Below are positions 865 to 32,953 of a stretch of DNA of 64,000 nucleotides, piece by piece; the stretch's first letter is position 1, and each line of letters begins with the position of its first letter. Where the stretch lies: NCBI GenBank assembly GCA_963749655.1, contig CAVVOB010000028.1, positions 1 to 64,000 of the forward strand. The letters are read 5' to 3'. The position numbers and the translations under genes are program-made. Below the pieces are notes generated by a model. It was not told the origin of the DNA and did not search any database. It saw only the letters and a list, made by a program, of their open reading frames with translations. This DNA comes from Nitrospirota bacterium (lineage in GTDB: Bacteria > Nitrospirota > UBA9217).

Positions 865-879
865 AATGGGGGGCGGCGG
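865..879 (-). repeat. Distal att site (degenerate copy of the tmRNA 3' end)
   Basis: aatggggggcggcgg versus aatggtggaggcggcgg at 32599-32615 (two 1-nt gaps); arm repeats nearby at 941-960. Confidence 0.65.
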
Positions 880-940
880 ACATTTAACAGGTTGTCCAAC
901 CGCCCTGATTTTCTAAGTTATTTGCGGGGCCATTTTTCGA

Positions 941-960
941 GTTACCCCCAAAGTTACCCC
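941..960 (+). repeat. Integrase arm-type binding repeats (GTTACCCC x2)
   Basis: gttacccccaaagttacccc; same motif x3 at 32467-32497 and inverted at 32440-32447. Confidence 0.75.
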
Positions 961-1025
961 GCGAACATCTGGACCACATAAGACTGTGCGAGACTTACTA
1001 GATTATACTGCACATCAAGCAGCGG

Positions 1026-1559
1026 ATGCAACCGAAACATGACCCTGACGTTACTCTTTTGACAGTTACAAAAATCTACCCTATAATGCGACTCATGAAA
1101 TCTATCATATCGTCGATAGTCGCTATCCTCATGATCGTGCTACTCGCGGTCCAAGCTTCCGCTGGTGACTTTGACATCAGGTTCGGGCTGATGAAAAAAG
1201 ATTCGGCAGGGAAATACTACGTTTATTCAGAGACTGCCACGATTCCCCTTACCTACAAGGACAAGGACCCCGACTTTCGATTCGGTTACTCCATAAAGAC
1301 CGCACCCGATAAAACCTTCAATACGTACATGATCATGCATACCCCGGCTGCCTTTGAGAAGTATACCGGCGAATTCAAAGATGCCGATAAGAAGGAAGGC
1401 GGTAAAGCTATTCAATCGTCCGCCAAGAATGCTGTCGCCGCGTTCACCTACTCTCTTCGGTTCGATCGCGGTGACCCTCCGGGACATTATGCAATCGATA
1501 TATGGATCAACGACAAGCTGGCCAAGACAATAGAATTCACCGTCACCGAGGCGAAATAA
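1026..1559 (+). CDS. Secreted hypothetical protein (true start probably ~1086-1095)
   Basis: Signal peptide MKSIISSIVAILMIVLLAVQASA; Ig-like C-terminus (PPGHYAIDIWIND...IEFTV). Confidence 0.6.
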   Translation: MQPKHDPDVTLLTVTKIYPIMRLMKSIISSIVAILMIVLLAVQASAGDFDIRFGLMKKDSAGKYYVYSETATIPLTYKDKDPDFRFGYSIKTAPDKTFNTYMIMHTPAAFEKYTGEFKDADKKEGGKAIQSSAKNAVAAFTYSLRFDRGDPPGHYAIDIWINDKLAKTIEFTVTEAK

Positions 1560-1601
1560 GCTTTCACTTCATCGACTATACAGCCGCCTTCTTCACGACC
1601 A

Positions 1602-1844
1602 TCACGATGCTACCTCAGGCGCAATCAGTTTTCTGATATCGTCCGCCTGCCAGCAGGTGCAGCGAGCGGACAGTTTCACCGGCTTTGGATACTTGCCCGT
1701 CTTGACCCCTGCCCACCAGGAGCTTTTGCTGATCGGGATGATCGGCGGAATGCCCTTTCTCCGGTCCCCGAGGATCTGCGACAGCCTCACAAGGCCGCGC
1801 TCCGGTAGTGCGTTCACTGCTGCCTCCTGCCCCATGCTCATCAA
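1602..1844 (-). CDS. AlpA-family regulator / excisionase
   Basis: LVRLSQILG...ISKSSWWAGVKTGKYPKPVKLSARCTCW signature. Confidence 0.9.
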   Translation of the reverse strand: MMSMGQEAAVNALPERGLVRLSQILGDRRKGIPPIIPISKSSWWAGVKTGKYPKPVKLSARCTCWQADDIRKLIAPEVAS

Positions 1845-1856
1845 TGCCTCCTCTTG

Positions 1857-2042
1857 TTAGTTGTTCGCCCTGCTGCAAATGCCTGTCGTTCGCGCGAGCT
1901 CGTCCATCTTTGCATGAAAGACGCGGTTCCATGCGTCCCGGTCCGCGTTGCTCTGCGGGTTGACTCCGGCCTTCTTGTTCGCGAACGCTACTGCGCTCGG
2001 GATGAGCGCATTCCTCTGTGCCACATACTCTGCATTCTGCAT
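1857..2042 (-). CDS. Small hypothetical protein
   Basis: RBS aaggagaag upstream; co-oriented within the operon. Confidence 0.55.
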   Translation of the reverse strand: MQNAEYVAQRNALIPSAVAFANKKAGVNPQSNADRDAWNRVFHAKMDELARTTGICSRANN

Positions 2043-2056
2043 TCGTGCTTCTCCTT

Positions 2057-2287
2057 TTAGAATGGAATCTCGCCCTCATCAAGAGGCGCTGAGTGTTGTT
2101 CCGTGCTCGTATCCTTCGGTCTGCGCTCCGCCACGACAAGCCAGCCGTCCCAGCTGCCTGCCGGCACGAGGTCGATCTTGACCGACTTCTTGCCGTCGTC
2201 CTTCTCCATCAGGACGCCGACCTTCTCCCATCTCGCCTTGCCGTTCTTGTCTTCGGTCCTTTTCCAAAGCAGATCGTATATCTTCAA
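2057..2287 (-). CDS. Small SSB-like phage protein
   Basis: TTG start with RBS aaaggagg; beta-rich core WEKVGVLME; acidic tail DEGEIPF. Confidence 0.6.
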   Translation of the reverse strand: MKIYDLLWKRTEDKNGKARWEKVGVLMEKDDGKKSVKIDLVPAGSWDGWLVVAERRPKDTSTEQHSAPLDEGEIPF

Positions 2288-2301
2288 TGTTCCTCCTTTC
2301 G

Positions 2302-2761
2302 TTATCGCCAGATGAACCAGACGAACTGCGCTACTGCCGACGCCCAGCAGCGCTCCTGCCATTGCCTCGCGGGGAGTGTGGCCGAGCACTTCCCGCAGCG
2401 GTTCATTCCGCAGCGGGTGGCCGAACTGGAGCGTGCCGGTCAGGATGTTGATAGACCGCGCATGGCGGCCGGAGTGGAACCGGACGCCGATAGCGTCATA
2501 GATGACGATCAGCGCCAGAATGAATGCGACAGCAAAAGCGGCCGTGTTGTATCCGATGTAGAGGCCGACGCCGTGGGCCGCAGCGGACACCATCGCGGCA
2601 TGGGCGCTCGGCATTCCTCCGGGACGTATATATAGAAGGATCGACCAATCCCACTTCCCGGTTTTGAGGTAGTGGATCGGCACCTTGCCGCTCTGAGCGA
2701 GGAACCATGCAGAGATTGCGGCAACGAGTATGTGGTTTGCGAACATTCCAAAGGGATTCAT
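2302..2761 (-). CDS. Divergent PAP2 / DUF212 membrane protein (1-nt indel near the 3' end)
   Basis: GGMPSAH, YDAIGVR, LGHTPRE motifs; alternative frame ends VAQFVWFIWR* at 2302. Confidence 0.85.
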
Positions 2762-2780
2762 GCTTGTGGGGCCTCCTGGA

Positions 2781-3002
2781 TTAGACTTTCACGTCGTAGG
2801 CGCGCGAGACGGTCCTGTACGTGCGCTTCGTTGTCGGGTGGTCGAATGCATCGTCCGCGATCTTCGTGAGCGTCGCGGCAATCGCGCGCAGCTGCTTGGG
2901 TGTGTGCGCTGAGCAGTTGCCATAGAACGGGCCGTGCAGCACCGCGAGCGGCTCCTTGTCGAGGGTCTGCGTGAACGTCACATGGATTCGTACCGGGTTC
3001 AT
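2781..3002 (-). CDS. Hypothetical protein
   Basis: MNPVRIHVTF...; ATGA overlap with the upstream ORF. Confidence 0.5.
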   Translation of the reverse strand: MNPVRIHVTFTQTLDKEPLAVLHGPFYGNCSAHTPKQLRAIAATLTKIADDAFDHPTTKRTYRTVSRAYDVKV

Positions 3003-3181
3003 GCTTTGGCGATCCTCCTTCGTCCCATCTCGCCGGGTGCCGCGCAGAGCGGACACTCGGTCTCGGGTTTGTGATGCGGAACGGGAACGTCGTCCGCGTT
3101 GTCCGCCACACAGGCAACGAGCCAGACCATGTTGCACTCCGGACAGTGGAAGTCTAGGTCGAAGGAACCATCCGCCATCAT
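2999..3181 (-). CDS. Small Zn-ribbon protein
   Basis: CPEC...CPLC cysteine pairs. Confidence 0.55.
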   Translation of the reverse strand: MMADGSFDLDFHCPECNMVWLVACVADNADDVPVPHHKPETECPLCAAPGEMGRRRIAKA

Positions 3182-3357
3182 CGAAGCGCGACCCCCTGCG
3201 CGATGAAGACCTGGCACGAGTGCTGCGACTTCACGAAAGCGATGTCCTTTTCAAGTTGCCTGGGCGTGGTCTTGACTGCGGTGAACATGTCCCCGCATTT
3301 CGGATACTCGGGGTTGATGTAGATGATCCAGAGCGCTTTTTGTGTCCAAGGTGCCTC

Positions 3358-3856
3358 CTATCTGATCCGGAGATGGGTCTTCTCAGTGACGAGCCGGGCA
3401 CCAGTCACGGCCTCGCCGTTCTTGAGGGCCGCGAGCATCCCCGTCTTGTCGATCTCCGTGATCTGCTTGATCTTGATGAACCGGGCGGGGAGCTGATCCT
3501 CCGCGAGGATCTCCACGCTCGGCGGGTTCTTCTGGATGCGGAGCGTCACGGTCGGCGATTCGATCTTCTGCACGTCCGCCTGTTCCATGCAAGACTTTGA
3601 TGTAGGCCAAGAGCCGCGTCCGGAGATTCTCGGCGACCTTCTTCTTGCGCTGGAGCCGGGCTATCTCCGTCTCGATCATGGATTCGACGCCCGCGATGTC
3701 GAGGGTCCACTTGGCAATGCCCTGCGACTTCGCGCGGAAGTCGAGGGCGACGGAGTCGAGCCTCGCTTCCAGGTCCGGCGTAAGCTCGCCGTCTGCGCTG
3801 ATGATCTCGTCATTGATCGTGGCAAGTTCGGTGCTCAGTTCATACAAGTGCGCCAT
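3358..3856 (-). CDS. Siphovirus Gp157-family protein (frameshift ~3595)
   Basis: MAHLYEL coiled-coil N-terminus plus KNPPSV...IDK...GEAVTGARL...HLRIR C-terminus in the adjacent frame. Confidence 0.85.
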
Positions 3857-4742
3857 CTTTCACTTCTCCTTTCTCCAGTTCTACCTTCCTCCGCTCCTTG
3901 AGGTCGATGATGATGGTCCGGTCAATGAGCGGGAGGGCGTCGATTTCCGCCTGATGCTTCTTCCACCAGTTGCGGAACTCGAACAGGTTCTGGATGGCAT
4001 TGATCCGGGCGGCCAGCGCGTCCCGCGCAGCCGCCGCCTTCGCGTCCCCGTCTATGCCAGTCTCCAGCCAGTTCATGAGCGCCTGACCGGTCTCGATCCC
4101 CGGAGTGAAGTGCTTGCCGTCGAACAGACGGGTGCGGTCCTTGCTGGCCGTGGCAACGTGGCTGTCGATACTCATATCGAAGACGCAGGTGAACTCGTAG
4201 TCCACGCCTTCGCGCTGGACCGGCGCAAGCCCGATCTTGACCGGCTTCTTCTTGCCGTTGCCGTCGTCTACGAGGTCGTAGGCCGTCTTTGTCCGGAGTG
4301 TGGCAATGACGTGGAGCCGCGCACCAAGCACAGCCTCGACCAGGGCGTTGTGCTGAGGCGTGATCTCGCGCCATGCTGTGAAGCTGTTCCCGCTCCGCAT
4401 GGCGGCAGCGGCCTTGTCGTGCATGTCCAGGAGACCGCCCTCACCGGCCCATGCATGGGAGAAACTGTCGATGATGAGGACCGAGTAGCCCGCTGCTTCT
4501 GCAGCGGCAATCGCGTTCCGGTATTTCTCGGGAGTGTACGGCGGGGTGAGTGAGGCGGTGTCGAATTCGCAGAGGTCGGCATACAGCGAACCGCTTTCGT
4601 GCTCAGTGTCGATCAGCGCGATCTTTCCGCCGAGGCCTTGAGCGATCAGGAGCGCACTGTAGGTCTTGCCGCTGCCTGCCGGTCCACAGAGCGCCAGCCG
4701 CAGGCGGGCTTTCTTCCGTTCAGCTTTTTGAAACATGGTCAT
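3840..4742 (-). CDS. Sak4-like AAA_24 ATPase / single-strand annealing protein
   Basis: FQKAERKKARLRLAL, GPAGSGKT, IDTEHES, IIDSFSHAW, QREGVDYEF. Confidence 0.9.
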   Translation of the reverse strand: MTMFQKAERKKARLRLALCGPAGSGKTYSALLIAQGLGGKIALIDTEHESGSLYADLCEFDTASLTPPYTPEKYRNAIAAAEAAGYSVLIIDSFSHAWAGEGGLLDMHDKAAAAMRSGNSFTAWREITPQHNALVEAVLGARLHVIATLRTKTAYDLVDDGNGKKKPVKIGLAPVQREGVDYEFTCVFDMSIDSHVATASKDRTRLFDGKHFTPGIETGQALMNWLETGIDGDAKAAAARDALAARINAIQNLFEFRNWWKKHQAEIDALPLIDRTIIIDLKERRKVELEKGEVKDGALV

Positions 4743-4923
4743 CCTCCTTGTCGTTTTGTACGCTTTCGCTTACACTATGGGCAAAAAAAGAGCGCATGAG
4801 CTGCCAAAATGTGCAGGATGCGCAGAGAAAGTCTCGCGTGTCCAAGGTGAATTTCCCGCAAACGCTGCATGTAGCCGCGAGAGGCTCACCCTTTTCATTT
4901 CTGATCAGAATCTTTACTTCCAA
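4720..4923 (-). CDS. Small Cys-containing hypothetical protein
   Basis: TTG after RBS ggagga; CSVC and CASC. Confidence 0.45.
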   Translation of the reverse strand: MEVKILIRNEKGEPLAATCSVCGKFTLDTRDFLCASCTFWQLMRSFFAHSVSESVQNDKEDDHVSKS

Positions 4924-4941
4924 TATGCTCCTCCGCTCAAC

Positions 4942-4984
4942 GTAAGCCATAGCTTACACTAACACGGAGAGCATGTCAAGCTTC
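4942..4984 (-). promoter_or_regulatory. Sigma70 promoter plus operator for the recombination operon
   Basis: TTGACA-N17-TAAGCT on minus strand; overlapping palindrome GTAAGC-CATA-GCTTAC; near-identical layout at 19886-19928. Confidence 0.7.
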
Positions 4985-4995
4985 TCGTTCACTCG

Positions 4996-6243
4996 TTAGA
5001 ATTCTGTATCCTCATCCCTAAGATAGCGCGCCTCGTAGTCATAATGAACTCCCGTCACTTGGACAACGCGAGCGCTGTTCGGCTGGTAAGTCAGCAGACC
5101 CTCTGGCTGTTCGCTGTGCGATACGGTCCCTTGCTGACCAAACAACACAATATTATGTTGGCTTAATTCTGTTTCTGTAAGACCCCGGTCATGAACATCG
5201 TGGCTTGGTTCTTCGAGTTCAGCTGACAATGTACCTGTCTGAGCAGAGGCATAGAGAATTCCGTCGAAACCGAGTACGTTTGAAACGTACTCTGCTACAG
5301 CCTGAGTAGGAATATACTCTAATTGTTCATCGCGGGGTTGAACAGGTCTTGAGATGAGATGATGAAAACCTTGCAAGAACTTAAGGCGAGCTGCACGGTT
5401 TGCATAATTAGGATGAAAGATACTGCCAGCAAAACCGACGCCGATCCGTGAAAGGTCAAGTAGGCGAAAGCGTTGACTCGGAATGAAACGACCGACAGTA
5501 ACCAGACCAGCAACGGATGGCCGCACTTCAGCAATAGCAGTGACCTCTGATAACGCGCCATAAAATACGGAGATGCCCGCAGGATTCATACGGCCAGCGG
5601 GAGCAATGGCAGCTGATGGAGGGCCCAATTCTACGGCGGGTTGATCCAAGATGCTTCTCGCGGCGTCCTCTGATTCCGCAAGCCGAGCCCTGAATATTTC
5701 TGATATTCTCGTACCTGGCCCTATTTCGAGAACAGGCAGTTGGGATGCTTCAGCGCCGCCCGGAGCGCCAAGTATCTCTTCAAGTTCCTGCCTGGCTACG
5801 GCATCAAAAAACCGTGCATGATGCCTTATTCTTCTGGAAAAGGATTCCCAATTTTCCGAATATGGCCAAGATGATAGATTTGTTCGGTGATAGTTCTGAT
5901 CTCTCTCATAGAACCGCTCGTCTCCTGGTCTTTCTGATGCTTCTAATATGCGGGCGAGTTCCTCAGCTGCGTCATAGTCGATTTCAAGTTCTTCATGCAA
6001 TAAGTCTTCAAGACTGTCGCCTTCTTGCACATCCTCCACGCCTGCGGCGTTGAATGCCGGCCGCCAGTGACCTTGTTGGCAATATTCTTGTAGAGTATCA
6101 TCGATCGCTATTGCAAGATCCTCCAAGTCGATGCCCCTGACGTTTTCGTCATGACAATAGTCGCAATCGCCAAGTTCGGATTCTTCCGCAACGAAATCGC
6201 GAGCCGGTTCGTCATGAATGCAATTTAAGCAGATAAAAGACAC
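4996..6243 (-). CDS. RES-domain protein with Cys-rich HEPN/RES-type N-terminal domain
   Basis: CLNC/CDYC N-terminus; IFRAR, GRMNPAGISVFY, AEVRP, YIPTQ, GILYAS. Confidence 0.85.
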   Translation of the reverse strand: MSFICLNCIHDEPARDFVAEESELGDCDYCHDENVRGIDLEDLAIAIDDTLQEYCQQGHWRPAFNAAGVEDVQEGDSLEDLLHEELEIDYDAAEELARILEASERPGDERFYERDQNYHRTNLSSWPYSENWESFSRRIRHHARFFDAVARQELEEILGAPGGAEASQLPVLEIGPGTRISEIFRARLAESEDAARSILDQPAVELGPPSAAIAPAGRMNPAGISVFYGALSEVTAIAEVRPSVAGLVTVGRFIPSQRFRLLDLSRIGVGFAGSIFHPNYANRAARLKFLQGFHHLISRPVQPRDEQLEYIPTQAVAEYVSNVLGFDGILYASAQTGTLSAELEEPSHDVHDRGLTETELSQHNIVLFGQQGTVSHSEQPEGLLTYQPNSARVVQVTGVHYDYEARYLRDEDTEF

Positions 6244-6275
6244 GATGGTTAACTCCCAGAGCGCTTCGAGACATG

Positions 6276-7166
6276 CTATTGTCGTGGCTTCTTCTTAACG
6301 ATGCCTTCATAATATCTGACAAGGTCAACGACCTTCGCGACATCGCGATTGGCATTCTTTAATTGTTCGCCGAGACCCATTAGAATATTGAGGACTGTTT
6401 CATCCGTTATGTACCGAAACAAGCCGGATGCCCACAATTTGAGATTCTCATCACCAGCATTCTTGTAATAGTCCCAAAAACGAACTTTGACAAGATTATA
6501 GTCGATGTCAATCGAGCGAGCCTTGTCTCCGAATATTTCCGTCTCTTTGCCCGGGTCCTCCGTTATTCTATCAATCAACAAACATCCGACAATTATTCTG
6601 TCTTTTTCCTCTGAGCCTGGCGGTCTCGTGGTTAAGATCGCCACCCTCCCCTTGCGTGCACTGTGAATTCGCCGCGGCTGAGTCTTTTCCGCTGTTGTTG
6701 TGTCCCAACCCGCAGCAAAGTACATTTCTTTCAAGGCAATGCTTTCATAACAAGGATGATTGCCGAGAGAGACGTTGGCGTCGAAGTCCTGACAGTTATT
6801 GCTCGACAGACTGCACCAAGCCCTGTTCTCTGACAAGTTGTATCTGTAAGCAGCCTCGCTACATGGGGCTTGATAATGCTTATCGTTCCAATTGCACTTA
6901 AAGGCGATATTGCCGTCTTCTTTTTTACCAGCCTCTCTTTTCGACAAGATGTTATCAATGTCAGTTGCCAAGGCCTCAAGCTGTGTAGCTCTCTTGCTTA
7001 TAATGCTTTTTTGTTCGCTCGTAGCTATGCTTTTAAGCTTGTTGAAAAGATCACGAGCCTGCCCTAGCTTCTCCATCGAATCTGAAATGGATTTCTTTCG
7101 TATCCACGACTTTGTTTCATCGATGAGTTTATCAATTGTTTCTCTTATTTCAATAAAATGCTGCAT
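6276..7166 (-). CDS. Hypothetical protein (helical N-terminus plus Cys-containing domain)
   Basis: 296-aa AT-rich ORF; NIAFKCNWND, WCS, PCYES, ILTTRPPG. Confidence 0.7.
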   Translation of the reverse strand: MQHFIEIRETIDKLIDETKSWIRKKSISDSMEKLGQARDLFNKLKSIATSEQKSIISKRATQLEALATDIDNILSKREAGKKEDGNIAFKCNWNDKHYQAPCSEAAYRYNLSENRAWCSLSSNNCQDFDANVSLGNHPCYESIALKEMYFAAGWDTTTAEKTQPRRIHSARKGRVAILTTRPPGSEEKDRIIVGCLLIDRITEDPGKETEIFGDKARSIDIDYNLVKVRFWDYYKNAGDENLKLWASGLFRYITDETVLNILMGLGEQLKNANRDVAKVVDLVRYYEGIVKKKPRQ

Positions 7167-7175
7167 AACGGTATC

Positions 7176-8597: not shown

Positions 8598-8612
8598 CCG
8601 GGGCTCTCTTTT
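8582..8612 (-). terminator. Hairpin / terminator after the DUF6573-like gene
   Basis: agagccccggat-c-atccggggctct inverted repeat. Confidence 0.6.
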
Positions 8613-8620
8613 CCGAATTA

Positions 8621-9002: not shown

Positions 9003-9199
9003 GTGCTACCTCCTATTTGTTGCTTGAGATTAATTCCGGCTCCGAGAACCGGAAAGACAACTGAGGATCTACCGGGAACAGCCGCGCCAGGGCACACCCG
9101 CCGCAAAGACCACAGGCCGGGCCGACCTCGCACCAGCCGGAAGGACCGGCGACACTGGTCGAGGACAGCGACGACCTGCTCCACAAGACCCACCTCCTT

Positions 9200-12971: not shown

Positions 12972-13002
12972 CAGTTGGTATGCGGCGAACGGGAGGCTTC
13001 TC

Positions 13003-13974: not shown

Positions 13975-13989
13975 AAACAGGATCAAACT

Positions 13990-24758: not shown

Positions 24759-24785
24759 ACCCTCTGTATATGGATCAGATAAAAC

Positions 24786-25616
24786 TTATACTTTCGAAAG
24801 CTGAATCCTCACATTTTGCCATTCACCGCCACCTTGATCAGTGGGTATGTGAGTGGCTATATCAGCATGATCCTTTTCAATAAGTAGGGGCGGATTACGG
24901 GCGATTAGCCAAAAGTGAAACTTATAGTTACCTATGGTCTTTGCCACGGTCCACTCATTTCGTGTAATAAAAACATATGCCTGCTTATGAGATAAAGAGC
25001 TCCCTTTGACTTCAATACGCAATGGTGTTGTGTCGGTTCCATTCACTCTAGACAATATATCGTAACCTGAGAAATTTGATTCGAGAGATTGCCAACGAGG
25101 TAAAATTCCAGTTCTCTTGGATTCATATTCCATCGACAAACGTTCTGCTTTCCGTCCTATCTGGAGAAGCTCATCATTCTTTTTAGCTCTAGCTGCTTGC
25201 GCAAGATCATCCCACCATAGAATCATTTCATCAGTCCAATCGTCGAGTAGATCCGCTTCTTTAAAGCACTGTTTAATATCGGACGGAAAGTATTCTTTTA
25301 CCTCCTCACGCCCGTTTCGCATTCGCTGCGCCCATGCTGGCTGAAATATTTCAATCGCATGTTTTATCTGAACACGAAGTGCCGATTCTCGTGAGGGTGC
25401 TCCGAGTACACTTTTTCCTCGTTCTGTTACAGCTAAAGTGCCATCTAGTGTAAGCGCAACCCAGCTGCAACGTTGAGACATTTCCAATACTTCTCCAGCA
25501 GCTGCAACTGTAAATGTCTTAAAAGAGTCAGTGAATTCCTTCGGTGATATCCCTTTTGAGCTAACGAGACCGACCATGTCCTGGCACGAATACAAAACAC
25601 CTACCGAAAAACTCAT
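24786..25616 (-). CDS. DUF3883 / NO VEIN-type PD-(D/E)xK nuclease
   Basis: GRKAE...YE, GYDILS, IEVKGS, ITRNEW. Confidence 0.85.
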   Translation of the reverse strand: MSFSVGVLYSCQDMVGLVSSKGISPKEFTDSFKTFTVAAAGEVLEMSQRCSWVALTLDGTLAVTERGKSVLGAPSRESALRVQIKHAIEIFQPAWAQRMRNGREEVKEYFPSDIKQCFKEADLLDDWTDEMILWWDDLAQAARAKKNDELLQIGRKAERLSMEYESKRTGILPRWQSLESNFSGYDILSRVNGTDTTPLRIEVKGSSLSHKQAYVFITRNEWTVAKTIGNYKFHFWLIARNPPLLIEKDHADIATHIPTDQGGGEWQNVRIQLSKV

Positions 25617-27403
25617 GACTCTCTCACTCCTTCATTCAGATGCTCTACAAGTGCAGCAAAATCATCATCGTCTAGCTCTTCATCTTCGAGATCATACTTT
25701 ACAGGGTCAATATGGAGATGTTGATCTTCAAGCACTTCGCTCATTTTACGGACCTTTAAGCGTAACCGTGTATCTACCGTTTCATCAATGGTTTCTGGAC
25801 TAATCAAGATTTCTACAATTGTTTTCTGATCGGGCTTTAGGCCTAACCGGTGAATCCGATCTTCGGACTGCAAGTACTGCGCAACGTTGAACGTCCGATC
25901 TATATAGATTGCGTTATGACAAACTTTGTGAAGACTGATACTTTCACCGCAAGCTGCCGGGTTTCCGACAAGTACATATGCTTTAGAATCCTCATGAAAT
26001 CGTAGTATCTTTCGCTCCCTAGTATCCTCTTCTTCCTCACTACCTGTTTCAACGCCCCCATGGATAAAGTCCGCCCCGAGATCCGCGAGACGCGAGGATA
26101 TCAACTCTACGTTTTTCACAAAACTTGACCAGATAATAGTTTTCTTACCACGTGCAGCTAGTTCTCTTGCTCTAGTGCACGCGATCGATATTTTCGGGCT
26201 ATCTCCGGATGCCAACACATCTGACAACAACTCTTCAGATATTACTCCACTCGATAATAGCAACGCCGGGTTCGAAACAAACTGCAATAAGCGCATTGCA
26301 GACCGTCCAATTTGACGATACTGCATACGTTGACGTAAATTCAGTGCTTTGTTTGCCTGACGAGCGATTTCTGATCTTAAGAGATCATAGACATAACGTT
26401 GCTCAGAGTTTAACGGTACCTCAATTGCCCGTCTGTCAACAGATGGGATATTGAGTTCATTTTTTGTAGTTCTAACGTAAATGGGCTTGACTAAATTTTC
26501 GATGTTGTCCTCATCGACGGGTACTTCTGGAAACAAAAACTTAAACTGCGGCACAAGGTCCAGTATTGATTGAGGCATTGGCGTTCCACTGAGAACCAAC
26601 TTATGTTCTGCAAGATGGGCGATACTAAGCACAGCGCTCGCCCACACACCGTCGGTTCCCCTTTTCATACGATGGCTCTCATCGACATACATGAAGCAAG
26701 GGTTCGATGTAAGGTATGCCGCAACATAAGAAATCACAATCGGCAACTGATGATATGTGATCAAGCACACTGCAGGATCCTTAGTGAGAAGGTATTGGAT
26801 ATTTTTTTCACCGCCGACAAGCCGCACAATAAGGCCTTTATATCCCGGCACGCATTCTTTGATTTGTTCTTCCCAAACGGCAAAAGCATTCTTTGGACAA
26901 ACGATTAGCAAGCGGTTGTTCTCAGCTCGCTTATAAAAATAGTATGCTAAAGCTTCTGTAGTTTTACCTGCACCTGGGACAGAAAAGGTAGCTCCGGAAG
27001 CCATTGAAGCTAGCCTGCTGACATTCTTTATTTGCGGCGTAGTAAGGAGGCGCGTGAACCCGCGCGCGGACAATCGCCCAGTAAGTTCAGCGATGTCCAC
27101 TGGAGGTGCAGATGCTGACGCTTCATAATTTTTTTCATGTTCTCTTGATTGTTGAAGATAAAGCCTGGCCTCAGCATCAAAAACGACACTAACCTTATGT
27201 CGCTGAACATAAAAATTAATCGCGCTACGTGAATTCAGGAACGCCCACCAAGGCATTGAAAAAGCAGCAGGACCTTTTTCCTCGACTTCAGTCGAGCGGT
27301 CTTCACAAGCTTGACGGATATCACTCCATGCCGCCCCTGAATCATCAGACGACAATTGAGCTCGTCGGCTCTTAATATCGTACTCAATTTTTAGAGTTGT
27401 CAT
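25613..27403 (-). CDS. SNF2-family helicase
   Basis: PGAGKT, DESH, SGTP, QSEDRIHRLG. Confidence 0.9.
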   Translation of the reverse strand: MTTLKIEYDIKSRRAQLSSDDSGAAWSDIRQACEDRSTEVEEKGPAAFSMPWWAFLNSRSAINFYVQRHKVSVVFDAEARLYLQQSREHEKNYEASASAPPVDIAELTGRLSARGFTRLLTTPQIKNVSRLASMASGATFSVPGAGKTTEALAYYFYKRAENNRLLIVCPKNAFAVWEEQIKECVPGYKGLIVRLVGGEKNIQYLLTKDPAVCLITYHQLPIVISYVAAYLTSNPCFMYVDESHRMKRGTDGVWASAVLSIAHLAEHKLVLSGTPMPQSILDLVPQFKFLFPEVPVDEDNIENLVKPIYVRTTKNELNIPSVDRRAIEVPLNSEQRYVYDLLRSEIARQANKALNLRQRMQYRQIGRSAMRLLQFVSNPALLLSSGVISEELLSDVLASGDSPKISIACTRARELAARGKKTIIWSSFVKNVELISSRLADLGADFIHGGVETGSEEEEDTRERKILRFHEDSKAYVLVGNPAACGESISLHKVCHNAIYIDRTFNVAQYLQSEDRIHRLGLKPDQKTIVEILISPETIDETVDTRLRLKVRKMSEVLEDQHLHIDPVKYDLEDEELDDDDFAALVEHLNEGVRES

Positions 27404-28643
27404 TTAACCACTCACGTAAACTTAATATAGACTTATCGATAGAATCCAACTGACTGTCTATGCCTGTTTTCTCAGTCGTGTCTGTTATTCCATTAAGCGC
27501 TTCGATCAATGATGTATTCGCCTTTCGCACTTGAGTAAGTACAAAGTCAGTACGCTTCTTCTCCTTCTCTTTCGCTAATTCAGCATCAACGACCTCAGCA
27601 GTAATTGTACGCACGCTGACTCGATTGTTTTCCTTTTCGACTGCCTCAAGTACGCCAACAAGCTGATCTCCTGAGCCCCCCAGTAAATCTGTATCATCGG
27701 CCTTAACTTCAGCCGAGGCAATAGGCAATGCTGACTTTAGATTGTTAATTACCTTATCAAGGTATTTTCCTGTAGATGATATTTTCTCGTACAACCTACC
27801 ACCTTCAGAGTCATCAATCAGGCAATATGCTATTTGCTCAAAAACATTTCGTTCTCCTTCTGTTTTAAAGAGTTTCGAACGTACCTTTGTTATTTGTCGA
27901 AACGCAAACTCATCGGTCTCAATTTCTTCGTATTGGCCCGGAATGCCGCGACTGGCAAGATAACGATCCGCGTATTCAAGCATTTGTATCCACTCCCGAA
28001 CTTCTGGTTTAGTAAGTTCGTAACGCTGTGCGATTTCGTCATCAGTGTAGCCATGTTCCTCTTTCCGCCATTTATACAAAAATGCTCGCGCTGTCCAGGT
28101 GTAGTCGGCTTTTATATCGCGATGAATTTGCAGATCAGCTTCCAGATCGTCTATTTGGCGTTCTGTCGCAGGAGGAAGAATTACAACGTCCACATTCTCG
28201 AAATGGGCATAACGTTGTTTATCTCGCTCAAGTAATATTCTCATCGCACACAATCTACGATTACCATTGACAACAAAACCATCATGGCTCAGTATTAGCG
28301 GCTCTTCCTGTTCGTGTGTCATAAAGTAGCCAAGCAAGTTTTTCTCATCAACCATTTTTTGAAGTATATTGTGTTGGATTACATGTGCGTCCTCCAACTC
28401 AAGATCACGTTTAAACAAATCTTGAGGCGCTTCAGAATGCTTTGCTAAATATTGCGCTTGAGCTGCAAGCGTCCGGCCATTATTCAGGCGGTATTTAGGT
28501 AATTCGATCGGGACATTATAGATACTGAACGTCTGCAAGCGTGATTGAAATCGCAGATCAAATGTGCGCTTGCTTGGTGTCGAATATAATTTTTTCAAAT
28601 GATCTGTTCTTTTAGGATATGGGTAGCCAAGCTGCATATTCAA
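27384..28643 (-). CDS. ParB/Srx-like domain protein
   Basis: YRLNNGR; QEEPLIL...VVNGNRRLCA. Confidence 0.75.
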   Translation of the reverse strand: MNMQLGYPYPKRTDHLKKLYSTPSKRTFDLRFQSRLQTFSIYNVPIELPKYRLNNGRTLAAQAQYLAKHSEAPQDLFKRDLELEDAHVIQHNILQKMVDEKNLLGYFMTHEQEEPLILSHDGFVVNGNRRLCAMRILLERDKQRYAHFENVDVVILPPATERQIDDLEADLQIHRDIKADYTWTARAFLYKWRKEEHGYTDDEIAQRYELTKPEVREWIQMLEYADRYLASRGIPGQYEEIETDEFAFRQITKVRSKLFKTEGERNVFEQIAYCLIDDSEGGRLYEKISSTGKYLDKVINNLKSALPIASAEVKADDTDLLGGSGDQLVGVLEAVEKENNRVSVRTITAEVVDAELAKEKEKKRTDFVLTQVRKANTSLIEALNGITDTTEKTGIDSQLDSIDKSILSLREWLNDNSKN

Positions 28644-29101
28644 CCCTCGCTTTCTATACCGAGTACAACAATAGGCACGGTAAGAGTAACCCGAAATATA
28701 TTTAATTCTTCTACAAAACGCTCATAGTTAGCTACGTTGCTGCCCAATGTTCTCGATAGTGTGCGCATTGGAATAATATATATCGCGACAACTATACGAC
28801 CATTACGAAATAGTGTTTCAAGCTTTAATAGATCAGCGTAAAAGCGACCCATATTGCCGGTTTGGAAACACAGGGCAATTCTATCCTTCATTGACGTGAC
28901 GCTTATTTTGGAATTCTCGTGAATTCTCACCGAATCCGACCAACCCAGTTTTTTAAGGTGACCGAGAATTTCATGCCTAAGTTTTGCAGCGCGCAAGTTT
29001 GAACGATGTTTGAAGCGACTCAGAGTTGAAGTGACCTCTTCATCTATTACTGATGAAATCACACGATCTGCAGACATATGTGAGTATCTGGTAATTTTCA
29101 C
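28640..29101 (-). CDS. BglII/BstYI-like restriction endonuclease-fold protein (divergent active site)
   Basis: LGW, CFQTGNMGRFYADLLKL, SNVANYER, VPIVVLGI. Confidence 0.65.
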   Translation of the reverse strand: MKITRYSHMSADRVISSVIDEEVTSTLSRFKHRSNLRAAKLRHEILGHLKKLGWSDSVRIHENSKISVTSMKDRIALCFQTGNMGRFYADLLKLETLFRNGRIVVAIYIIPMRTLSRTLGSNVANYERFVEELNIFRVTLTVPIVVLGIESEG

Positions 29102-29113
29102 GGAAATTTATAA

Positions 29114-30100
29114 TTACCTCTGTGGTGGTATCGAAAGCTTAGAAGTCGTATGATCATAAATTGGTTTTGCATGAGAACGATATTTTGCTTCACCCTTAAG
29201 GGCTTGATTAATCCTGTCCTTGGCCAGCTTCACATATTCCGTCATTACCTCGGCACCCCAAAACCGACGATCATGTAGAGCAGCAGCCACGCCAGAGGAT
29301 CCAACACCTGAAAATGGATCAAATACAATATCCCCTTTGTTTGTCAGTGACAGAATCAGCCGTTCTATCAGACCAACTGGAAATTGGCAGGGGTGGCTTG
29401 TCTTTTCGACATGATTACTCTTGACATTCGGTATTTCCCAAATTTCATCGGGGAAATCCCAAATATCTTCTGGATTCTTTCCAAGAGGATTACTGCTATA
29501 TTCGCCGGCTTTTGGCCCTTTATAGTGTCGTTTTGCTGGGTACTTCGACGGAATGCGTATTGCATCAAGATTGAACACATATTCGTCGCCCTTCGTATAC
29601 CACAAAACAACTTCATAGCGGCCACTAAAACGTTTTTTGCTATGTAGACCATGACCAAATTTCCAGATAATTCTATTTCGTAATTTAAGCCCGTGCTTAG
29701 CAAACAACGGATGCAAAAGAATATCTAAAGGTATGATGTGTCCGTTATTCACATAGTTGCCAACTTGCCAACACACGCTGGCATTTTGTTTCACTCTTGG
29801 TAATATTTTTGAAATTATTTTATCTTGCCATGATAAATAGGCATCAAGCGAGGTCTTGCTTTCATACTCCTTGCCAAGATTATATGGTGGTGACGTAACA
29901 ACCAAATCAAATAGTGGCGTTGACGGTAACCTGTCTAGGAAGGCGTTTACATCTCCGTTCCAGATCATATATGGCTCATCTGTGGAAATGCAAGCGTCTT
30001 TACTATACAGAGAGCTGTTGGGCCTATATATAGACACGGTTTTTTTTCTCTCGCTTTTGATTTTTTTATTCATATCGTTATGATGAGCTCTCTTAAGCAA
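29114..30100 (-). CDS. Beta-class N4C/N6A DNA methyltransferase
   Basis: VTSPPY precedes HPCQFP and DPFSGVGS. Confidence 0.92.
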   Translation of the reverse strand: MLKRAHHNDMNKKIKSERKKTVSIYRPNSSLYSKDACISTDEPYMIWNGDVNAFLDRLPSTPLFDLVVTSPPYNLGKEYESKTSLDAYLSWQDKIISKILPRVKQNASVCWQVGNYVNNGHIIPLDILLHPLFAKHGLKLRNRIIWKFGHGLHSKKRFSGRYEVVLWYTKGDEYVFNLDAIRIPSKYPAKRHYKGPKAGEYSSNPLGKNPEDIWDFPDEIWEIPNVKSNHVEKTSHPCQFPVGLIERLILSLTNKGDIVFDPFSGVGSSGVAAALHDRRFWGAEVMTEYVKLAKDRINQALKGEAKYRSHAKPIYDHTTSKLSIPPQR

Positions 30101-30133
30101 TCAGCGCTTTGCCAGTTATGGCGAATCAATCTC

Positions 30134-30481
30134 TTACATCTTCGAGTATTTCTTTGCCGATCCCTTCGCCTTCTCCACCGGATACTTCGCTTCATTCATC
30201 GCGATTTTCTTTTCCACTTCCGTCAGCAAGTCGATCTTATATTCCTCGCTGAGATAGGTGAGAAAGATAAAGATGTCGGCCAGTTCTTCTTTTACGTTCT
30301 TGAGTTCTTCTGCGGTGAGATTGCGGGACTGCTCGGTCGTCTTCCAGAGGAAGTTTTCAAGCAGCTCCCCCGCTTCAATGGAGAGGGCTTCGGCGAGGTT
30401 CTTGGGATCGTGGAATTGCGCCCAGTCACGCTCGTTCCGGAATGAGATGATCTTTTTCTGGATTGCTTCTAAATCAGCCAT
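30134..30481 (-). CDS. MazG-like nucleotide pyrophosphohydrolase
   Basis: ERDWAQFHDPKNLA, EAGELLE, EELAD, KYP. Confidence 0.92.
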   Translation of the reverse strand: MADLEAIQKKIISFRNERDWAQFHDPKNLAEALSIEAGELLENFLWKTTEQSRNLTAEELKNVKEELADIFIFLTYLSEEYKIDLLTEVEKKIAMNEAKYPVEKAKGSAKKYSKM

Positions 30482-30568
30482 GCCCCTCCCCGACTGCTAT
30501 TAATCCCATAATAATTCAGAACTTTACTACAGGTAGTCGAAAATGTCCAGAAAAGATAGGCTGACGAC

Positions 30569-31186
30569 TTAATCCACCTTTCTGTCAACTTTGCCGAAAA
30601 GCTGATTGATGATATCAGCGCAGATTGCCAATGTAACAACACCAGTAGGATATAGAATGTTGCTCCCGTGCGCAAAGTTATTTCTAAAATACGGTAGCGA
30701 ATCGGCCAGTATTTTACAATACGCTTGAAGATTGTCTGTGTCCGGATCATGCTCTTTATCCTGTGGCCTGTAACTGTCTGCGGCTGTTCGTTGTATCAAT
30801 GTTTCTTGTGATACCGGGTAATACTTGAAACCGCTGTCCTGAATCCATTTATTCTGAATTGCAATATTCAAAAGAGATTTGAGACCGGCGCGCTTCTTTC
30901 CACTCTTGATCTTGAGTGCGAATTCCACTGAAGCAATGGCGTGAAGTTCTGCTACAGGTCCGAATCGATAGACAAACCAGTTGTAGAGATAAAGATTGCG
31001 TGCTGTATCAAAATGAACACGTATATCCTCTGGTACTTCTGGCAAAAGGACAATTTCTTCTATTTCCGAATAATGATGTTGGAGTGTTTTTTGTCGAGCC
31101 GCGCCAGTTTCTCGATTAACGAGAAGATACGAGCCCTGAACTCCATCGGGGATAAAAAGCTTATCAAAAGGTTTCAGGCTATTCAT
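30569..31186 (-). CDS. HEPN-like protein
   Basis: FRNNFAHG (RX4H); SVEFALK. Confidence 0.65.
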   Translation of the reverse strand: MNSLKPFDKLFIPDGVQGSYLLVNRETGAARQKTLQHHYSEIEEIVLLPEVPEDIRVHFDTARNLYLYNWFVYRFGPVAELHAIASVEFALKIKSGKKRAGLKSLLNIAIQNKWIQDSGFKYYPVSQETLIQRTAADSYRPQDKEHDPDTDNLQAYCKILADSLPYFRNNFAHGSNILYPTGVVTLAICADIINQLFGKVDRKVD

Positions 31187-31205
31187 AGCGCACCATTTGC
31201 ATTAC

Positions 31206-32420
31206 TCAACCCGCCATTTTCGGGAACGGCAGGATCTTCGCCCCTGCTTTGATTTCATCCAGATAATCGCTCCAGAGCTGCATCATCTTCTTCCGCTCAT
31301 CCAGGTGCGCCGTTCGGTTGTATGCGCGGCCATTCGGATCGCGCACAGCGTGTGCAAGCTGGTGCTCGATGTACTCGGGCCGGACGTGGAGCACCTCGTC
31401 GAGGATGGTGCGGGCCATGGCCCGGAAACCGTGGCCGGTCATTTCGTCCTTGTCATATCCCATGCGCCGCAGCGCGGCAAGGATCGCGTTGTTGCTCATC
31501 GGGCGCTGGTTCGTGCGAGGGCTCGGAAACACATACTTGCTGCGGCCGGTCAGCGGCTGGAGGGATTGAAGCACTTCGACCGCCTGGCGCGACAGCGGCA
31601 CGATGTGGGGCAGCCTCATCTTCATCTTTTCAGCCGGGATCGACCAGATGCCCGCCTCGAGGTCGAACTCGGCCCATTCAGCGTTCCGCAGTTCTCCGGG
31701 CCGGACAAAGAACATGCCCGCGAGCTGCAGCGCGGACTTGACCACGAATGAACCCTGATACCCGTCGATCGCGCGGAGCAGGGCGGCAACATCCTTCGGG
31801 TCCGTCAGCGCCGCAAGATGGGTTTTCGCTGCCGGCGGCAGCGCGCCCTTGAGGTCGTAGGAGCAGTCACGCTCCGCCCTGCCCGTCGCAACGGCGTAGC
31901 GGAAGACCTGGCCGCAGATGCTCTTTACGCGGTGGGCCGTTTCCAACGCCCCCCGGGACTCCACGCGCCGAAGAACCGTCAGCAGCTCCGGCGCTTTGAT
32001 CTCGGCGATGGGCCGCTCCCCGATCCAGGGGAAGGCGTCCCGCTCCAGCCGCTTAATGGTGGTCTCGGCGTGGACCGGCGTCCAGCGGGGAGAGAACTTC
32101 TCGTGCCACTCCCGCGCAATAACCTCGAAGCTGTTCTCCACCTGGCCCCGCGCCGCCTTCTGTGCCTTGCGGACCTCTCCGGGGTCTATGCCGTTGGCGA
32201 CCTGCTTTCGTGCAGTGTCACGCCGCTCCCGCGCATCAATAAGGGATATCTCCGGGTAGGTGCCGAGGGAGATCAGTTTCTCCTTATCTTCGAAGCGGTA
32301 CTTGAAGCGCCACCACTTCCCGCCGTTGGCAGCGATTTGCAGATAAAGGCCCTGGCCGTCGTTCAGCTTGTAGGGCTTGTCCTTAGCCTTCGCGCTCTTG
32401 ACCTTTATATCTGATAACAC
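31206..32420 (-). CDS. P4-like tyrosine integrase
   Basis: Arm domain DGQGLYL...GTYPEISL; RPGEL, KMK, HGFR, QLAH, AYNR. Confidence 0.96.
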   Translation of the reverse strand: MLSDIKVKSAKAKDKPYKLNDGQGLYLQIAANGGKWWRFKYRFEDKEKLISLGTYPEISLIDARERRDTARKQVANGIDPGEVRKAQKAARGQVENSFEVIAREWHEKFSPRWTPVHAETTIKRLERDAFPWIGERPIAEIKAPELLTVLRRVESRGALETAHRVKSICGQVFRYAVATGRAERDCSYDLKGALPPAAKTHLAALTDPKDVAALLRAIDGYQGSFVVKSALQLAGMFFVRPGELRNAEWAEFDLEAGIWSIPAEKMKMRLPHIVPLSRQAVEVLQSLQPLTGRSKYVFPSPRTNQRPMSNNAILAALRRMGYDKDEMTGHGFRAMARTILDEVLHVRPEYIEHQLAHAVRDPNGRAYNRTAHLDERKKMMQLWSDYLDEIKAGAKILPFPKMAG

Positions 32421-32439
32421 AGGGGAAACTCCTTATATT

Positions 32440-32500
32440 GGGGTAACTGCCTTTTTAGCCAGTTCAGTTACCCCTAAAGTTACCCCAAAGTTACCCCAAA
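32440..32500. repeat. Integrase arm-type repeats (GTTACCCC x3 plus one inverted)
   Basis: gttacccctaaagttaccccaaagttacccc; ggggtaac at 32440. Confidence 0.75.
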
Positions 32501-32542
32501 TGTCAAGAAATCAGTGAAGACCACCACGGACGCATAAATAAG

Positions 32543-32569
32543 AAAAGCCCCTATTTTCAAGGGGCTTTT
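32543..32569 (-). terminator. Terminator downstream of tmRNA
   Basis: aaaagcccct-attttca-aggggctttt. Confidence 0.75.
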
Positions 32570-32600
32570 GCACTTCATTGGACTACCTTGGATTGTGAAA

Positions 32601-32953
32601 TGGTGGAGGCGGCGGGAATTGAACCCGCGTCCGAAAACCTTCAGCCGGAAGCTCATACATGCTTTTCCCCTCGTTTAAATCTCGCCTCTTCCAACGCCTC
32701 GGGGAGAGCTTTGGAATCGGCCAGCCCGGTATGTCTTATCTTACCGCCCCGGACGGAACGGAAAGACCAGCCCGAATTGTGACATCCCTTCGACCGCTCG
32801 GGCGGCAGCCGGGAGACGCGCGACCTAGTTAATTAGGCTGCGTATGCCAGTTCGTTATTGGCAGTTGTGTTTTGCCATGTGTTTAACGAGACCCCATGGC
32901 ACCTCGGCATGCAACTCCTGACCTCCGTGTCCCCGTCGAAGCCTGTCGCCCCC
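32601..32953 (-). ncRNA. ssrA: tmRNA; tag peptide ANNELAYAA
   Basis: 5' GGGGGCG pairs with CGCCTCC-ACCA 3' (G3.U); T-arm GGTTCAATTCC; GCCAATAACGAACTGGCATACGCAGCCTAA. Confidence 0.96.

Follow-up and report, generated by a model that had tools for sequence, protein, structure and literature searches.

The question raised by this locus is what kind of mobile element, carrying genes of phage type and none recognised for building a particle, has inserted at the tmRNA gene of a Nitrospirota bacterium, and whether this copy still has the means to move. The DNA examined, termed the window, comprises the 64,000 nucleotides at positions 1-64000 of contig CAVVOB010000028.1 (assembly GCA_963749655.1), with position 1 being the contig end, and the source bin consists of 39 contigs with a completeness of 86.6% and a contamination of 5.8%. 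The element spans ~865-32625 (31.8 kb), with the tmRNA 3' end on one side and a degenerate copy of it on the other, and is composed of a backbone of ~11.6 kb with a host-like GC content and three fixed AT-rich slots that hold ~20 kb of exchangeable cargo. The best explanation of the arrangement, with a probability of about 0.55, is that the copy in the window belongs to a small Nitrospiraceae family of integrative elements that derive from phages and are without particle genes by design.

The profile searches covered 39 open reading frames (ORFs) and 1 alternative ORF against Pfam and 30 queries against PHROGs. No match in the head, tail, packaging or lysis categories was obtained with the 40 Pfam and 30 PHROG queries, and no relaxase, coupling protein or VirB4 was matched among the Pfam queries, in agreement with the initial annotation of this DNA, which had recognised no terminase, capsid, portal, tail, lysin, relaxase or VirB4 gene and had described a bounded, phage-derived integrative element. 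The packaging and capsid-redirecting genes terS, ppi, cpm and rpp likewise gave no Pfam or PHROG match, with several small backbone proteins remaining without a family. The capsid and terminase families PF05065, PF03354 and PF03237 are absent from the incomplete bin of the host itself and occur in 0/5, 0/5 and 1/5 of the five relatives (also incomplete bins), with the single match lying on other contigs.

The absence of particle genes is a family trait and not a local decay, since a second copy bounded on both sides also lacks them and since ordinary host genes follow directly after the end that bears the AlpA-like gene in two relatives, G043 and G045. The bounded copy, that of G043 (also handled as G055), is 24.8 kb long and is placed beside tRNA-Ala(cgc) between perfect 23-bp repeats, with an integrase 72% identical to that of the window; judged by synteny and space it has no particle genes and no room for a late operon. 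The host genes after the AlpA end are those for purine synthesis, RNase III and fabF/G in one of the two genomes, and genes for GGDEF proteins, response regulators and a P-type ATPase in the other. A full morphogenesis module in relatives, which would have marked the element as a decayed prophage, was thus found neither in the bounded G043 copy nor in the other copies as far as their contigs reach.

With the AAA_24 ATPase gene as query, the backbone is found in 6 of the 64 genomes searched in the host family, the Nitrospiraceae, distributed over 4 of 19 genera, and in a wider sample of the phylum in 7 of 401 genomes, the seventh at 47-48% identity. The gene order is the same in all copies (tblastn, blastn), and three insertion settings are used, the tmRNA, tRNA-Ala(cgc) and tRNA-Ala(ggc). 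In G078 the end that corresponds to the AlpA-like end of the window is occupied by an unrelated Xis and Int pair beside tRNA-Ala(ggc). The backbone DNA is 71-90% identical between copies compared with 68-76% for the host flank, the margin being clear for G045 and G043. Comparison of the window with the five relatives shows substitutions falling overwhelmingly at one codon position across 1600-4990 and 8620-9000, which indicates purifying selection and fixes the reading frames. Further afield, other Nitrospirota and Thermodesulfovibrionales have the order repressor, cro, O ... AAA_24 ... SSB-tip gene (the last encoding a small protein that ends like the host single-stranded DNA-binding protein, SSB) at ~50% identity, and the cultured isolate Thermosulfurimonas dismutans S95 carries a distant GC-rich version of ~12.4 kb between tRNA-Arg and tRNA-Thr (contig locus 3700-16203). 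This version has a core of repressor, O, AAA+ ATPase and YdjM genes, with AT-rich cargo next to the repressor, the integrase on the tRNA-Thr side and a largest ORF of 489 amino acids (aa). Homologues of the membrane-anchored AAA+ ATPase (35 proteins) lead to 15 loci, in 15/15 of which the ATPase and YdjM genes are adjacent.

The cargo is confined to three slots with a GC content of 0.415-0.445 compared with 0.57-0.64 for the backbone and 0.588 for the host. Alignment to the five relatives (blastn) shows homology stopping at 4988-4991 and restarting at 8581-8585 for slot 1, and stopping at 10676-10681 and restarting at 15130-15142 for slot 2, with the homology at slot 3 fading within the repressor gene and restarting at the integrase gene. 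The three AT-rich slots described initially are therefore borne out both by their low GC content and by borders common to the relatives, and the same backbone synteny with swapped cargo, proposed as a check, was found in the five relatives and in public contigs. In the relatives the same slots hold ThiF with JAB, a HEPN RiboL-PSP gene, a sigma-54 activator with DUF169, or two radical SAM/SPASM genes; in public contigs slot 1 is either empty, with 93 nt between the borders, or occupied by 5.5 kb of different DNA, and 1657 nt take the place of slot 2. Contigs of four public runs, which are from relatives and are termed X1 to X4, were compared with positions 1-20000; slot 2 is covered by 0/4 of these runs and slot 1 is uncovered in three, such gaps being no evidence of absence.

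That the cargo includes defence genes is supported by the PADLOC matches to Nsn and MTase_II in slot 3. The three adjacent Nsn genes form what we take to be the system named 'Menshen', and the BglII-like endonuclease and N6/N4 methylase form a type II restriction-modification pair. In slot 2 the PADLOC matches are weak (pVip at 6.3e-07 for 13990-15069 and E1-E2 at 3.5e-04 for 12006-12971), and the operon at 10853-15069 with its radical SAM and D-2-hydroxyacid dehydrogenase genes may serve defence by modifying nucleotides or make up a small cluster for biosynthesis. Three cargo ORFs without assignment, compared by tblastn with 50,697 phage records, gave 2, 0 and 0 matches, the two being to a hypothetical gene and an unannotated record.

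Expression of the backbone appears to be coordinated across the cargo by a duplicated promoter. A stretch of 43 nt in the intergenic region between the repressor and cro genes (19886-19928) is repeated at 4942-4984, just after slot 1 and ahead of the operon that begins with the zinc-ribbon and AAA_24 genes, and contains a TTGACA-type -35 box together with the palindrome GTAAGCnATnGCTTAC. The second copy is also present in L008, L009, L010 and G043. In G043 the repressor is only 63% identical to that of the window and both promoter copies bear the same altered operator; this covariation of the operators at both copies with the repressor supports a single repressor controlling both operons. The duplication may let cargo sit between the operons without polar effects on, or silencing of, the downstream backbone. 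On the minus strand at 19800-19830, between the cro-side promoter and the cro start codon, there is a terminator-like hairpin followed by a T-run, which could point to control by antitermination.

From these parts a cycle can be proposed for intact copies. DNA damage would lead to self-cleavage of the repressor, on which the two copies of the repressor-controlled promoter would open, with one driving cro, O and the nucleases and the copy after slot 1 driving the AlpA-like gene together with those for recombination. Excision would be carried out by the integrase with the AlpA-like protein, and O together with the AAA+ ATPase would replicate the element from the iterons. Exit would then take place in the particle of a helper phage, which is the least certain step and a guess preferred by analogy only.

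The copy in the window departs from such an intact member. Mapping gene models of the relatives onto the window reveals four lesions in the backbone, each a one-base insertion relative to the relatives. The Gp157 gene changes frame at ~3596 (+1 nt compared with five relatives), a frame change at ~19243-19247 parts the DNA-binding domain of O from the remainder of the protein, the gene for a secreted coiled-coil protein is scattered over three frames with the base at 18109 absent in X1 and X2, and the p56 gene has no in-frame start codon, its extra base at 3344 being omitted in the contigs of all four runs. The X1 contigs lack the additional bases at 3596, 18109 and 19247; where covered, X2 lacks those at 18109 and 19247 (not the one at 3596) and X4 those at 3596 and 19247. 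The X3 contigs keep all three, and their longest piece, matching 3497-8294, is ~96% identical to the window with the same slot 1 cargo. Because the same states are present in the independent X3 assembly, and because the window's 31 kb of host DNA contains long ORFs without breaks, the lesions are very probably real and belong to this sub-lineage, and are not assembly errors. The extra base at 3344 occurs in the window only, and an error may still account for it. The description of this copy as complete, inducible and replicating is not supported, given an O gene split by +1, three other broken backbone genes and a degenerate attL. This copy has lost its autonomy and is now most likely a fixed defence island with Nsn, the restriction-modification pair and a RES toxin-like gene, and it is probably the defence cargo that makes it useful to the host at present.

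Both ends of the element, which had been reported as present, are visible as the tmRNA end, the arm-type repeats and an attL copy; the left end is degenerate. The tmRNA gene lies at 32601-32953 on the minus strand (ARAGORN; Rfam 194.7 bits), with the integrase gene 180 bp from its 3' end. The stretch 865-889 matches 32599-32625 with 21/26 identical positions and 2 gaps, scoring 23 compared with a maximum of 20 in 2000 random 56-mers. As read from the sequence, the attL copy lacks both the base that would form the G:U pair and the CCA that a functional acceptor end has, and is therefore a relic. In a contig of another sample the match to the window begins at 870.

The left flank (1-864) is not plain host DNA, having a HepT-like toxin gene at 65-484 (-) followed by a terminator; the HepT gene is also found in the relative G021 at 85% protein identity. 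This terminator and the stretch 803-851 resemble the integrase-proximal end of the element family, with 803-850 resembling the element's own stretch 32524-32569 as well as sequence downstream of tRNA-Ala in G008. On the simplest reading suggested by these similarities, insertion took place in tandem, next to the stump of a related, older element, of which the HepT-like gene is what remains up to the contig end. In G024 a tandem-type junction is present, formed by arm, terminator and tmRNA 3' fragment and then an element left end. On the host side, two 96-nt direct repeats (98% identical, 114 nt apart) are located at 35142-35351 between proC and a YggS-like gene and are rich in AAACT/GAGTT motifs, with similar motifs just upstream of the tmRNA (32960-33090).

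Table 1. Features of the element in the window, from attL to attR; the genes of each cargo slot follow the slot.
Feature	Position	Strand	Basis
attL, degenerate tmRNA 3'-end copy	865-889	.	alignment to 32599-32625
Arm-type repeats AGTTACCCC x2, probable integrase arm sites	940-960	+	repeat search
Lineage-specific cargo ORF, 177 aa, hydrophobic N-terminus	1026-1559	+	tblastn: no match in 5 relatives
AlpA-like helix-turn-helix (HTH) protein, putative excisionase/activator	1602-1865	-	71% identical to 94-aa ORF of L009
Conserved backbone protein, 61 aa (p61)	1857-2042	-	no PHROG match
Small beta-rich protein with DEGEIPF C-terminal tip	2057-2299	-	alignment; 80 residues
Mini-slot, DUF212 (divergent PAP2) membrane domain, in frame with downstream gene	2300-2761	-	Pfam 7.6e-41
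Conserved backbone protein, 73 aa (p73)	2781-3002	-	models from relatives
Conserved Cys-rich (zinc-finger-like) protein, 72 aa	2999-3217	-	models from relatives
p56 homologue without in-frame start codon (+1 nt at 3344)	3178-3348	-	models from relatives
Gp157-like gene, frameshifted ~3596	3361-3856	-	Pfam, PHROGs; halves in frames -3 and -1
AAA_24 ATPase (Sak4-like recombination ATPase)	3840-4742	-	Pfam 8.9e-21; phrog_1366 7.7e-90
Zinc-ribbon protein, first gene of second operon	4720-4950	-	profile search, models from relatives
Second copy of repressor-controlled promoter/operator, TTGACATG-N12-TTGTAAGC + palindrome GTAAGCnATnGCTTAC	4942-4984	-	repeat search
Slot 1	4992-8581	-	Pfam, borders
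Slot 1: HEPN/RES-NTD1+RES protein	4996-6243	-	Pfam
Slot 1: 296-aa protein without assignment	6276-7166	-	no family
Slot 1: 473-aa protein resembling HNH-repeat clusters	7176-8597	-	Atlas lead only
DUF6573 backbone protein	8621-9001	-	Pfam 3.7e-13; period-3 substitution pattern
Conserved GC-rich non-coding stretch, repeated motif AGCGAAGCGGAGCG, nested inverted repeats 9914-10154	9030-10677	.	no period-3 signal
Slot 2: radical SAM, 2-hydroxyacid dehydrogenase, membrane protein, radical SAM	10678-15129	+	Pfam
PLD-family Nuc-like nuclease, signal-peptide-like N-terminus	15130-15678	-	Pfam PLDc_2 1.7e-28
YdjM-like membrane hydrolase	15752-16249	-	Pfam; 84% identical to G078 model
AAA+ ATPase with C-terminal membrane helix, candidate helicase loader	16246-16899	-	35 homologues; AlphaFold2 (AF2) + Foldseek
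DUF4417 (phrog_940, 'nuclease')	16901-17536	-	Pfam, PHROGs
Secreted coiled-coil protein gene, disrupted	17607-18262	-	signal peptide, middle, remainder in different frames
VRR-NUC nuclease	18301-18741	-	Pfam 1.8e-09; phrog_824 2.1e-40
O-like replication initiator, split by +1 nt ~19243-19247	18738-19500	-	Pfam Rep_O 3e-17; 279-aa single ORF in G078
Cro-like protein, 77 aa	19513-19746	-	93-96% identical in relatives; faces repressor gene
Divergent promoter region, three operator-like half-palindromes	19763-19946	.	sequence
CI-like repressor, HTH + S24 self-cleaving peptidase	19949-20578	+	Pfam Peptidase_S24 3.4e-29, HTH
Slot 3	20579-31205	-	Pfam, PADLOC
Slot 3: NsnC/B/A, adjacent	20714-23930	-	PADLOC NsnA 2.4e-138, NsnB 5.7e-111, NsnC 6.7e-49
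Slot 3: HhH-GPD protein	24084-24758	-	Pfam
Slot 3: NOV_C	24786-25616	-	Pfam
Slot 3: SNF2 helicase	25613-27403	-	Pfam
Slot 3: 419-aa protein without assignment	27384-28643	-	no family
Slot 3: BglII-like endonuclease	28640-29101	-	Pfam
Slot 3: N6/N4 methylase	29114-30100	-	Pfam; PADLOC MTase_II 1.5e-75
Slot 3: MazG-like	30134-30481	-	Pfam
Slot 3: 205-aa protein without assignment	30569-31186	-	no family
P4-type tyrosine integrase	31206-32420	-	Pfam Arm-DNA-bind_3, Phage_int_M, Phage_integrase
Arm-type repeats AGTTACCCC x3 (32466-32497) + element-borne terminator now ending tmRNA gene	32466-32575	.	repeat search
attR core, within tmRNA 3' end	32599-32625	-	ARAGORN, Rfam, alignment to attL

Clean gene models were taken from the short-read relatives L009, L010 and G078 and replaced the first-pass ORFs of the window. 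The corrected series next to the repressor consists of Cro, O (279 aa, a single ORF holding the iterons), VRR-NUC, the secreted coiled-coil protein, DUF4417, the AAA+ ATPase, YdjM and the secreted Nuc. The cleavable repressor, the O-like initiator with iterons and the VRR-NUC nuclease proposed at the outset are all recovered here by profile matches. The repressor has both HTH and Peptidase_S24 domains, with Ala-Gly, Ser and Lys residues in what we take to be the pattern of self-cleaving S24 repressors; the initiator has a Rep_O N-terminal domain in a frameshifted gene that contains four to five iterons at 19097-19214; and VRR-NUC is matched in Pfam and PHROGs alike. The AF2 model of the AAA+ ATPase (pLDDT 74) has ORC/Cdc6, DnaA, RuvB and RFC as its top Foldseek matches at modest TM-scores of 0.37-0.43, making it a candidate for the loader that partners O.

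The second operon in its corrected form runs from the zinc-ribbon protein through AAA_24, Gp157 (166 aa), p56, the 72-aa Cys-rich protein, p73, the SSB-tip protein and p61 to the AlpA-like protein. The assignment of Gp157 stands on its Pfam and PHROG matches, the gene being frameshifted. Sak4 is upheld in part, in that the protein is an AAA_24 ATPase matching phrog_1366 at 7.7e-90, with the match to the Sak4-like phrog_124 being weak (3e-5); among the matches listed it is 47-58% identical to genes of Mx8, Erwinia and Pseudomonas phages. The protein annotated as SSB-like proves to have no OB-fold domain by Pfam SSB (PF00436), which matches only the host ssb gene on contig C39 (C39:19840-20103) and nothing in the element, and what it shares with the host SSB is just the C-terminal tip, its last seven residues DEGEIPF being those of the host protein. 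The AF2 model (pLDDT 60) has three strands and a disordered tail. It is possible that this protein mimics the host SSB tip, thereby recruiting or competing for the partners of SSB. For the name AlpA, Pfam Phage_AlpA (PF05930) has 0 matches in the bin of the host at E <= 0.001, and the sole support is a weak match to the AlpA-family protein in PDB 8c3t at E 0.14.

Within this operon the DUF212 insert (2299-2780, ~0.5 kb) is variable, being missing in L008, L009 and L010, and groundwater contigs join 2286 to 2781. A sediment contig similarly joins 1016 to 1604, bypassing the ORF at 1026-1559. For the ~1.6 kb non-coding stretch 9030-10677, kept in all relatives at a GC content of 0.64-0.65, three roles are conceivable, as a structured RNA, as a site for packaging or as an array bound by proteins. 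Of four pieces of 9880-10700 folded as RNA, one on the minus strand had z = -3.7 and the remaining three had +0.65 to +1.06, and an Rfam scan returned chance microRNA matches only. A consensus fold with 65 pairs is nearly all invariant and has a positive covariation term, and no RNA is claimed. The first-pass ORFs 1615-2139, 2758-3117, 9311-9763, 9925-10173 and 10397-10600 are wrong-frame or non-coding artefacts, as are, by the models from relatives, the N-termini of the first-pass ORFs 8621-9193 and 15752-16468. Sequence searches of the PDB with four ORFs, which include the artefacts 2758-3117 and 9311-9763 and the partial ORF 17607-18155, found nothing.

[quoted passage not shown] The element resembles PICIs and the Staphylococcus aureus pathogenicity islands in having an integrase, a divergent repressor/Cro-like pair, its own origin with an initiator, cargo and no particle genes, with the weakly assigned AlpA being a further likeness to the Gram-negative forms. 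The integrase is placed by att as in PICIs. Neither primase nor helicase families are represented in the Pfam and PHROG results, an O-like initiator and a small AAA+ ATPase being present in place of Pri-Rep; neither a packaging or capsid-redirecting gene nor a small terminase was matched in Pfam or PHROGs; and the repressor looks SOS-cleavable in contrast to the helper-released repressors of PICIs. At 31.8 kb (11.6 kb without cargo) the element is also above the size of 10-20 kb given for PICIs in 10.1101/2020.12.28.424599.

The tycheposons of Prochlorococcus, reported in vesicles and capsids in 10.1101/2020.12.28.424599, share with the element a tyrosine recombinase at one end, tRNA or tmRNA sites, a replication module, cargo, the lack of capsid and conjugation genes, and tandem remnants that build islands. 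Their hallmarks are primases, helicases and polymerases, of which the primase and helicase hallmarks are absent here, and by description they are set apart by their own integrase lineage, mostly nutrient-acquisition cargo and no lambdoid immunity switch (10.1101/2020.12.28.424599). Closest in layout among published elements are the Pseudomonas islands I23, I44 and I55 (PMC12595487). Direct repeats flank them at the tmRNA, one end is marked by a tyrosine integrase and the opposite one by AlpA, and they contain recombination genes of phage type, defence cargo and no genes recognised for autonomous transfer; a jumbo phage was shown to transduce I55 as a satellite. Shared with these islands are the tmRNA 3' site, the integrase, AlpA (weak here), an HTH/recombination backbone, type II restriction-modification cargo and the lack of genes for autonomous transfer. 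For the I55-like definition of intY downstream of the tmRNA, AlpA or a 23-bp end, and direct repeats (PMC12595487), the window offers an integrase at the tmRNA, a repeat degenerate at 21/26 and a weak AlpA. The core genes of the islands described there (YqaJ, RadC and an inovirus Gp2-like gene) are not among the Pfam or PHROG matches of the element, which unlike them has a full CI/Cro switch with an S24 repressor, O with iterons, and AAA_24 with Gp157. I55 moreover belongs to another host phylum and has a known helper, none being known here, and the two are compared by description only.

The claim of an undescribed class fails, since the tmRNA islands I23/I44/I55 (PMC12595487), tycheposons and PICIs share the design (10.1101/2020.12.28.424599). 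The family is a separate gene set that works like PICIs and tycheposons and is filed under neither, being without Pri-Rep, packaging genes, and primase and helicase hallmarks. No paper on this type of mobile element in Nitrospiraceae or Nitrospira was found in full texts, supplements not being covered. The likeness to phages is to the early region of Mx8 and the lambdoid phages, with a CI/Cro switch with three operators, an O gene holding iterons, AAA_24 with Gp157, and VRR-NUC; Myxococcus phage Mx8 p81 is 52% identical to the AAA_24 protein. Unlike temperate phages, no bounded copy has late, lysis or morphogenesis genes and the early region ends at the att site, and in neither the window copy nor G043 are terminase, portal, capsid, tail and lysis genes found between the att sites.

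Several observations weigh against a family built without particle genes and still capable of movement. The copies bounded on both sides are two, and those of G078, G045, G079 and G003 run off contig ends beyond which a late operon is possible; the margin of backbone over flank identity is small for G078 and G003; and the AlpA assignment is weak. Decay is common, with G003 having lost residues 1-340 of its integrase (341-404 are left beside the tmRNA) and only the arm and terminator being left beside the tmRNA in G003 and G013. Neither a packaging signal nor a small terminase or capsid-redirecting gene was identified, and the three Pfam families revealed no helper prophage in 5/6 host genomes. 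In IMG/VR the AAA_24 patterns had no match and DUF4417 matches are at most 49% identical. No excision, circle, raised coverage or encapsidated copy was seen, the public runs providing contigs of relatives and the best run containing 0.17 of sampled words. In a metagenome scan, relatives among the matches listed reach at most 68% identity and few have a second backbone gene.

Much of this would also be expected of a decayed prophage lineage that lost its late operon once and persists as a remnant, inherited mostly vertically and kept for its defence cargo, being neither a satellite nor otherwise mobile today. This explanation is unlikely. The four broken backbone genes and degenerate attL of the window, the truncated integrase of G003 and the remnants in G003 and G013 fit it, as do the failure of the profile searches and IMG/VR to find a helper, packaging gene or particle-borne copy and the fact that every backbone gene that can be recognised is of an ordinary kind for the early region of a temperate phage, Mx8 for example. 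It is harder to reconcile with the same end point after the AlpA-like/p61 gene recurring despite three different integration modules and sites, with the perfect 23-bp repeats of G043, with a backbone that is under purifying selection and more alike than the host flanks, with the patchy occurrence in 4/19 genera, and with the distant 12.4 kb version of T. dismutans that has the same core between two tRNA genes.

If the elements do move, they may do so without a particle, carried in membrane vesicles, taken up by natural transformation or mobilised along with a conjugative element from a transfer origin that escapes recognition, with the envelope-associated genes (the membrane-anchored AAA+ ATPase, YdjM-like hydrolase, secreted nuclease and secreted coiled-coil protein) serving that route. 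The adjacency of the AAA+ and YdjM genes in 15/15 loci and the failure of the three Pfam families to detect a helper prophage favour it, and precedents exist in the vesicle-borne and encapsidated tycheposons (10.1101/2020.12.28.424599) and in the genomic islands proposed, in a 2026 preprint (10.64898/2026.01.13.699239), to hitch on conjugative elements. We consider it doubtful, given that relaxase, coupling protein and VirB4 are missing among the Pfam queries, that the ATPase is most similar in fold to replication initiators and loaders and not to DNA translocases, and that the regulatory and recombination modules are of temperate-phage type. A binning or assembly chimera of unrelated AT-rich and GC-rich DNA is very improbable: the window does start at a contig end of a bin of 39 contigs with 5.8% contamination, and its GC content alternates sharply, but the backbone order and slot borders recur in five other assemblies and in contigs of the four public runs, one X3 contig spans backbone and slot 1 unbroken (3497-8294), and the right-hand host genes are syntenic with those of relatives.

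The preferred reading remains an integrative element family that lacks particle genes by design. A bolder version, to which we attach a low probability as a whole, is that intact members make up a new lineage in Nitrospirota and Thermodesulfobacteriota, either of satellites that induce themselves or of mobile islands that need no particle. An own cleavable repressor would sense DNA damage in them, replication would start from an O/iteron origin, and spread would be mediated by the invariably linked membrane-anchored AAA+ ATPase and YdjM-like hydrolase, aided by an SSB-tip mimic recruiting host replication or repair enzymes, so ferrying defence between nitrifier genera. Since the copy in the window is decaying, it is in itself of limited interest, and the T. 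dismutans S95 isolate offers a possible experimental model. Two points of the design deserve notice, the duplicated repressor-controlled promoter just after a cargo slot and the small protein with the exact tip of the host SSB. The Nitrospiraceae are key nitrifiers, and the family shows that the design of a phage early region with fixed cargo slots and no particle genes is present in this phylum too, on the preferred reading moving defence systems between genera.

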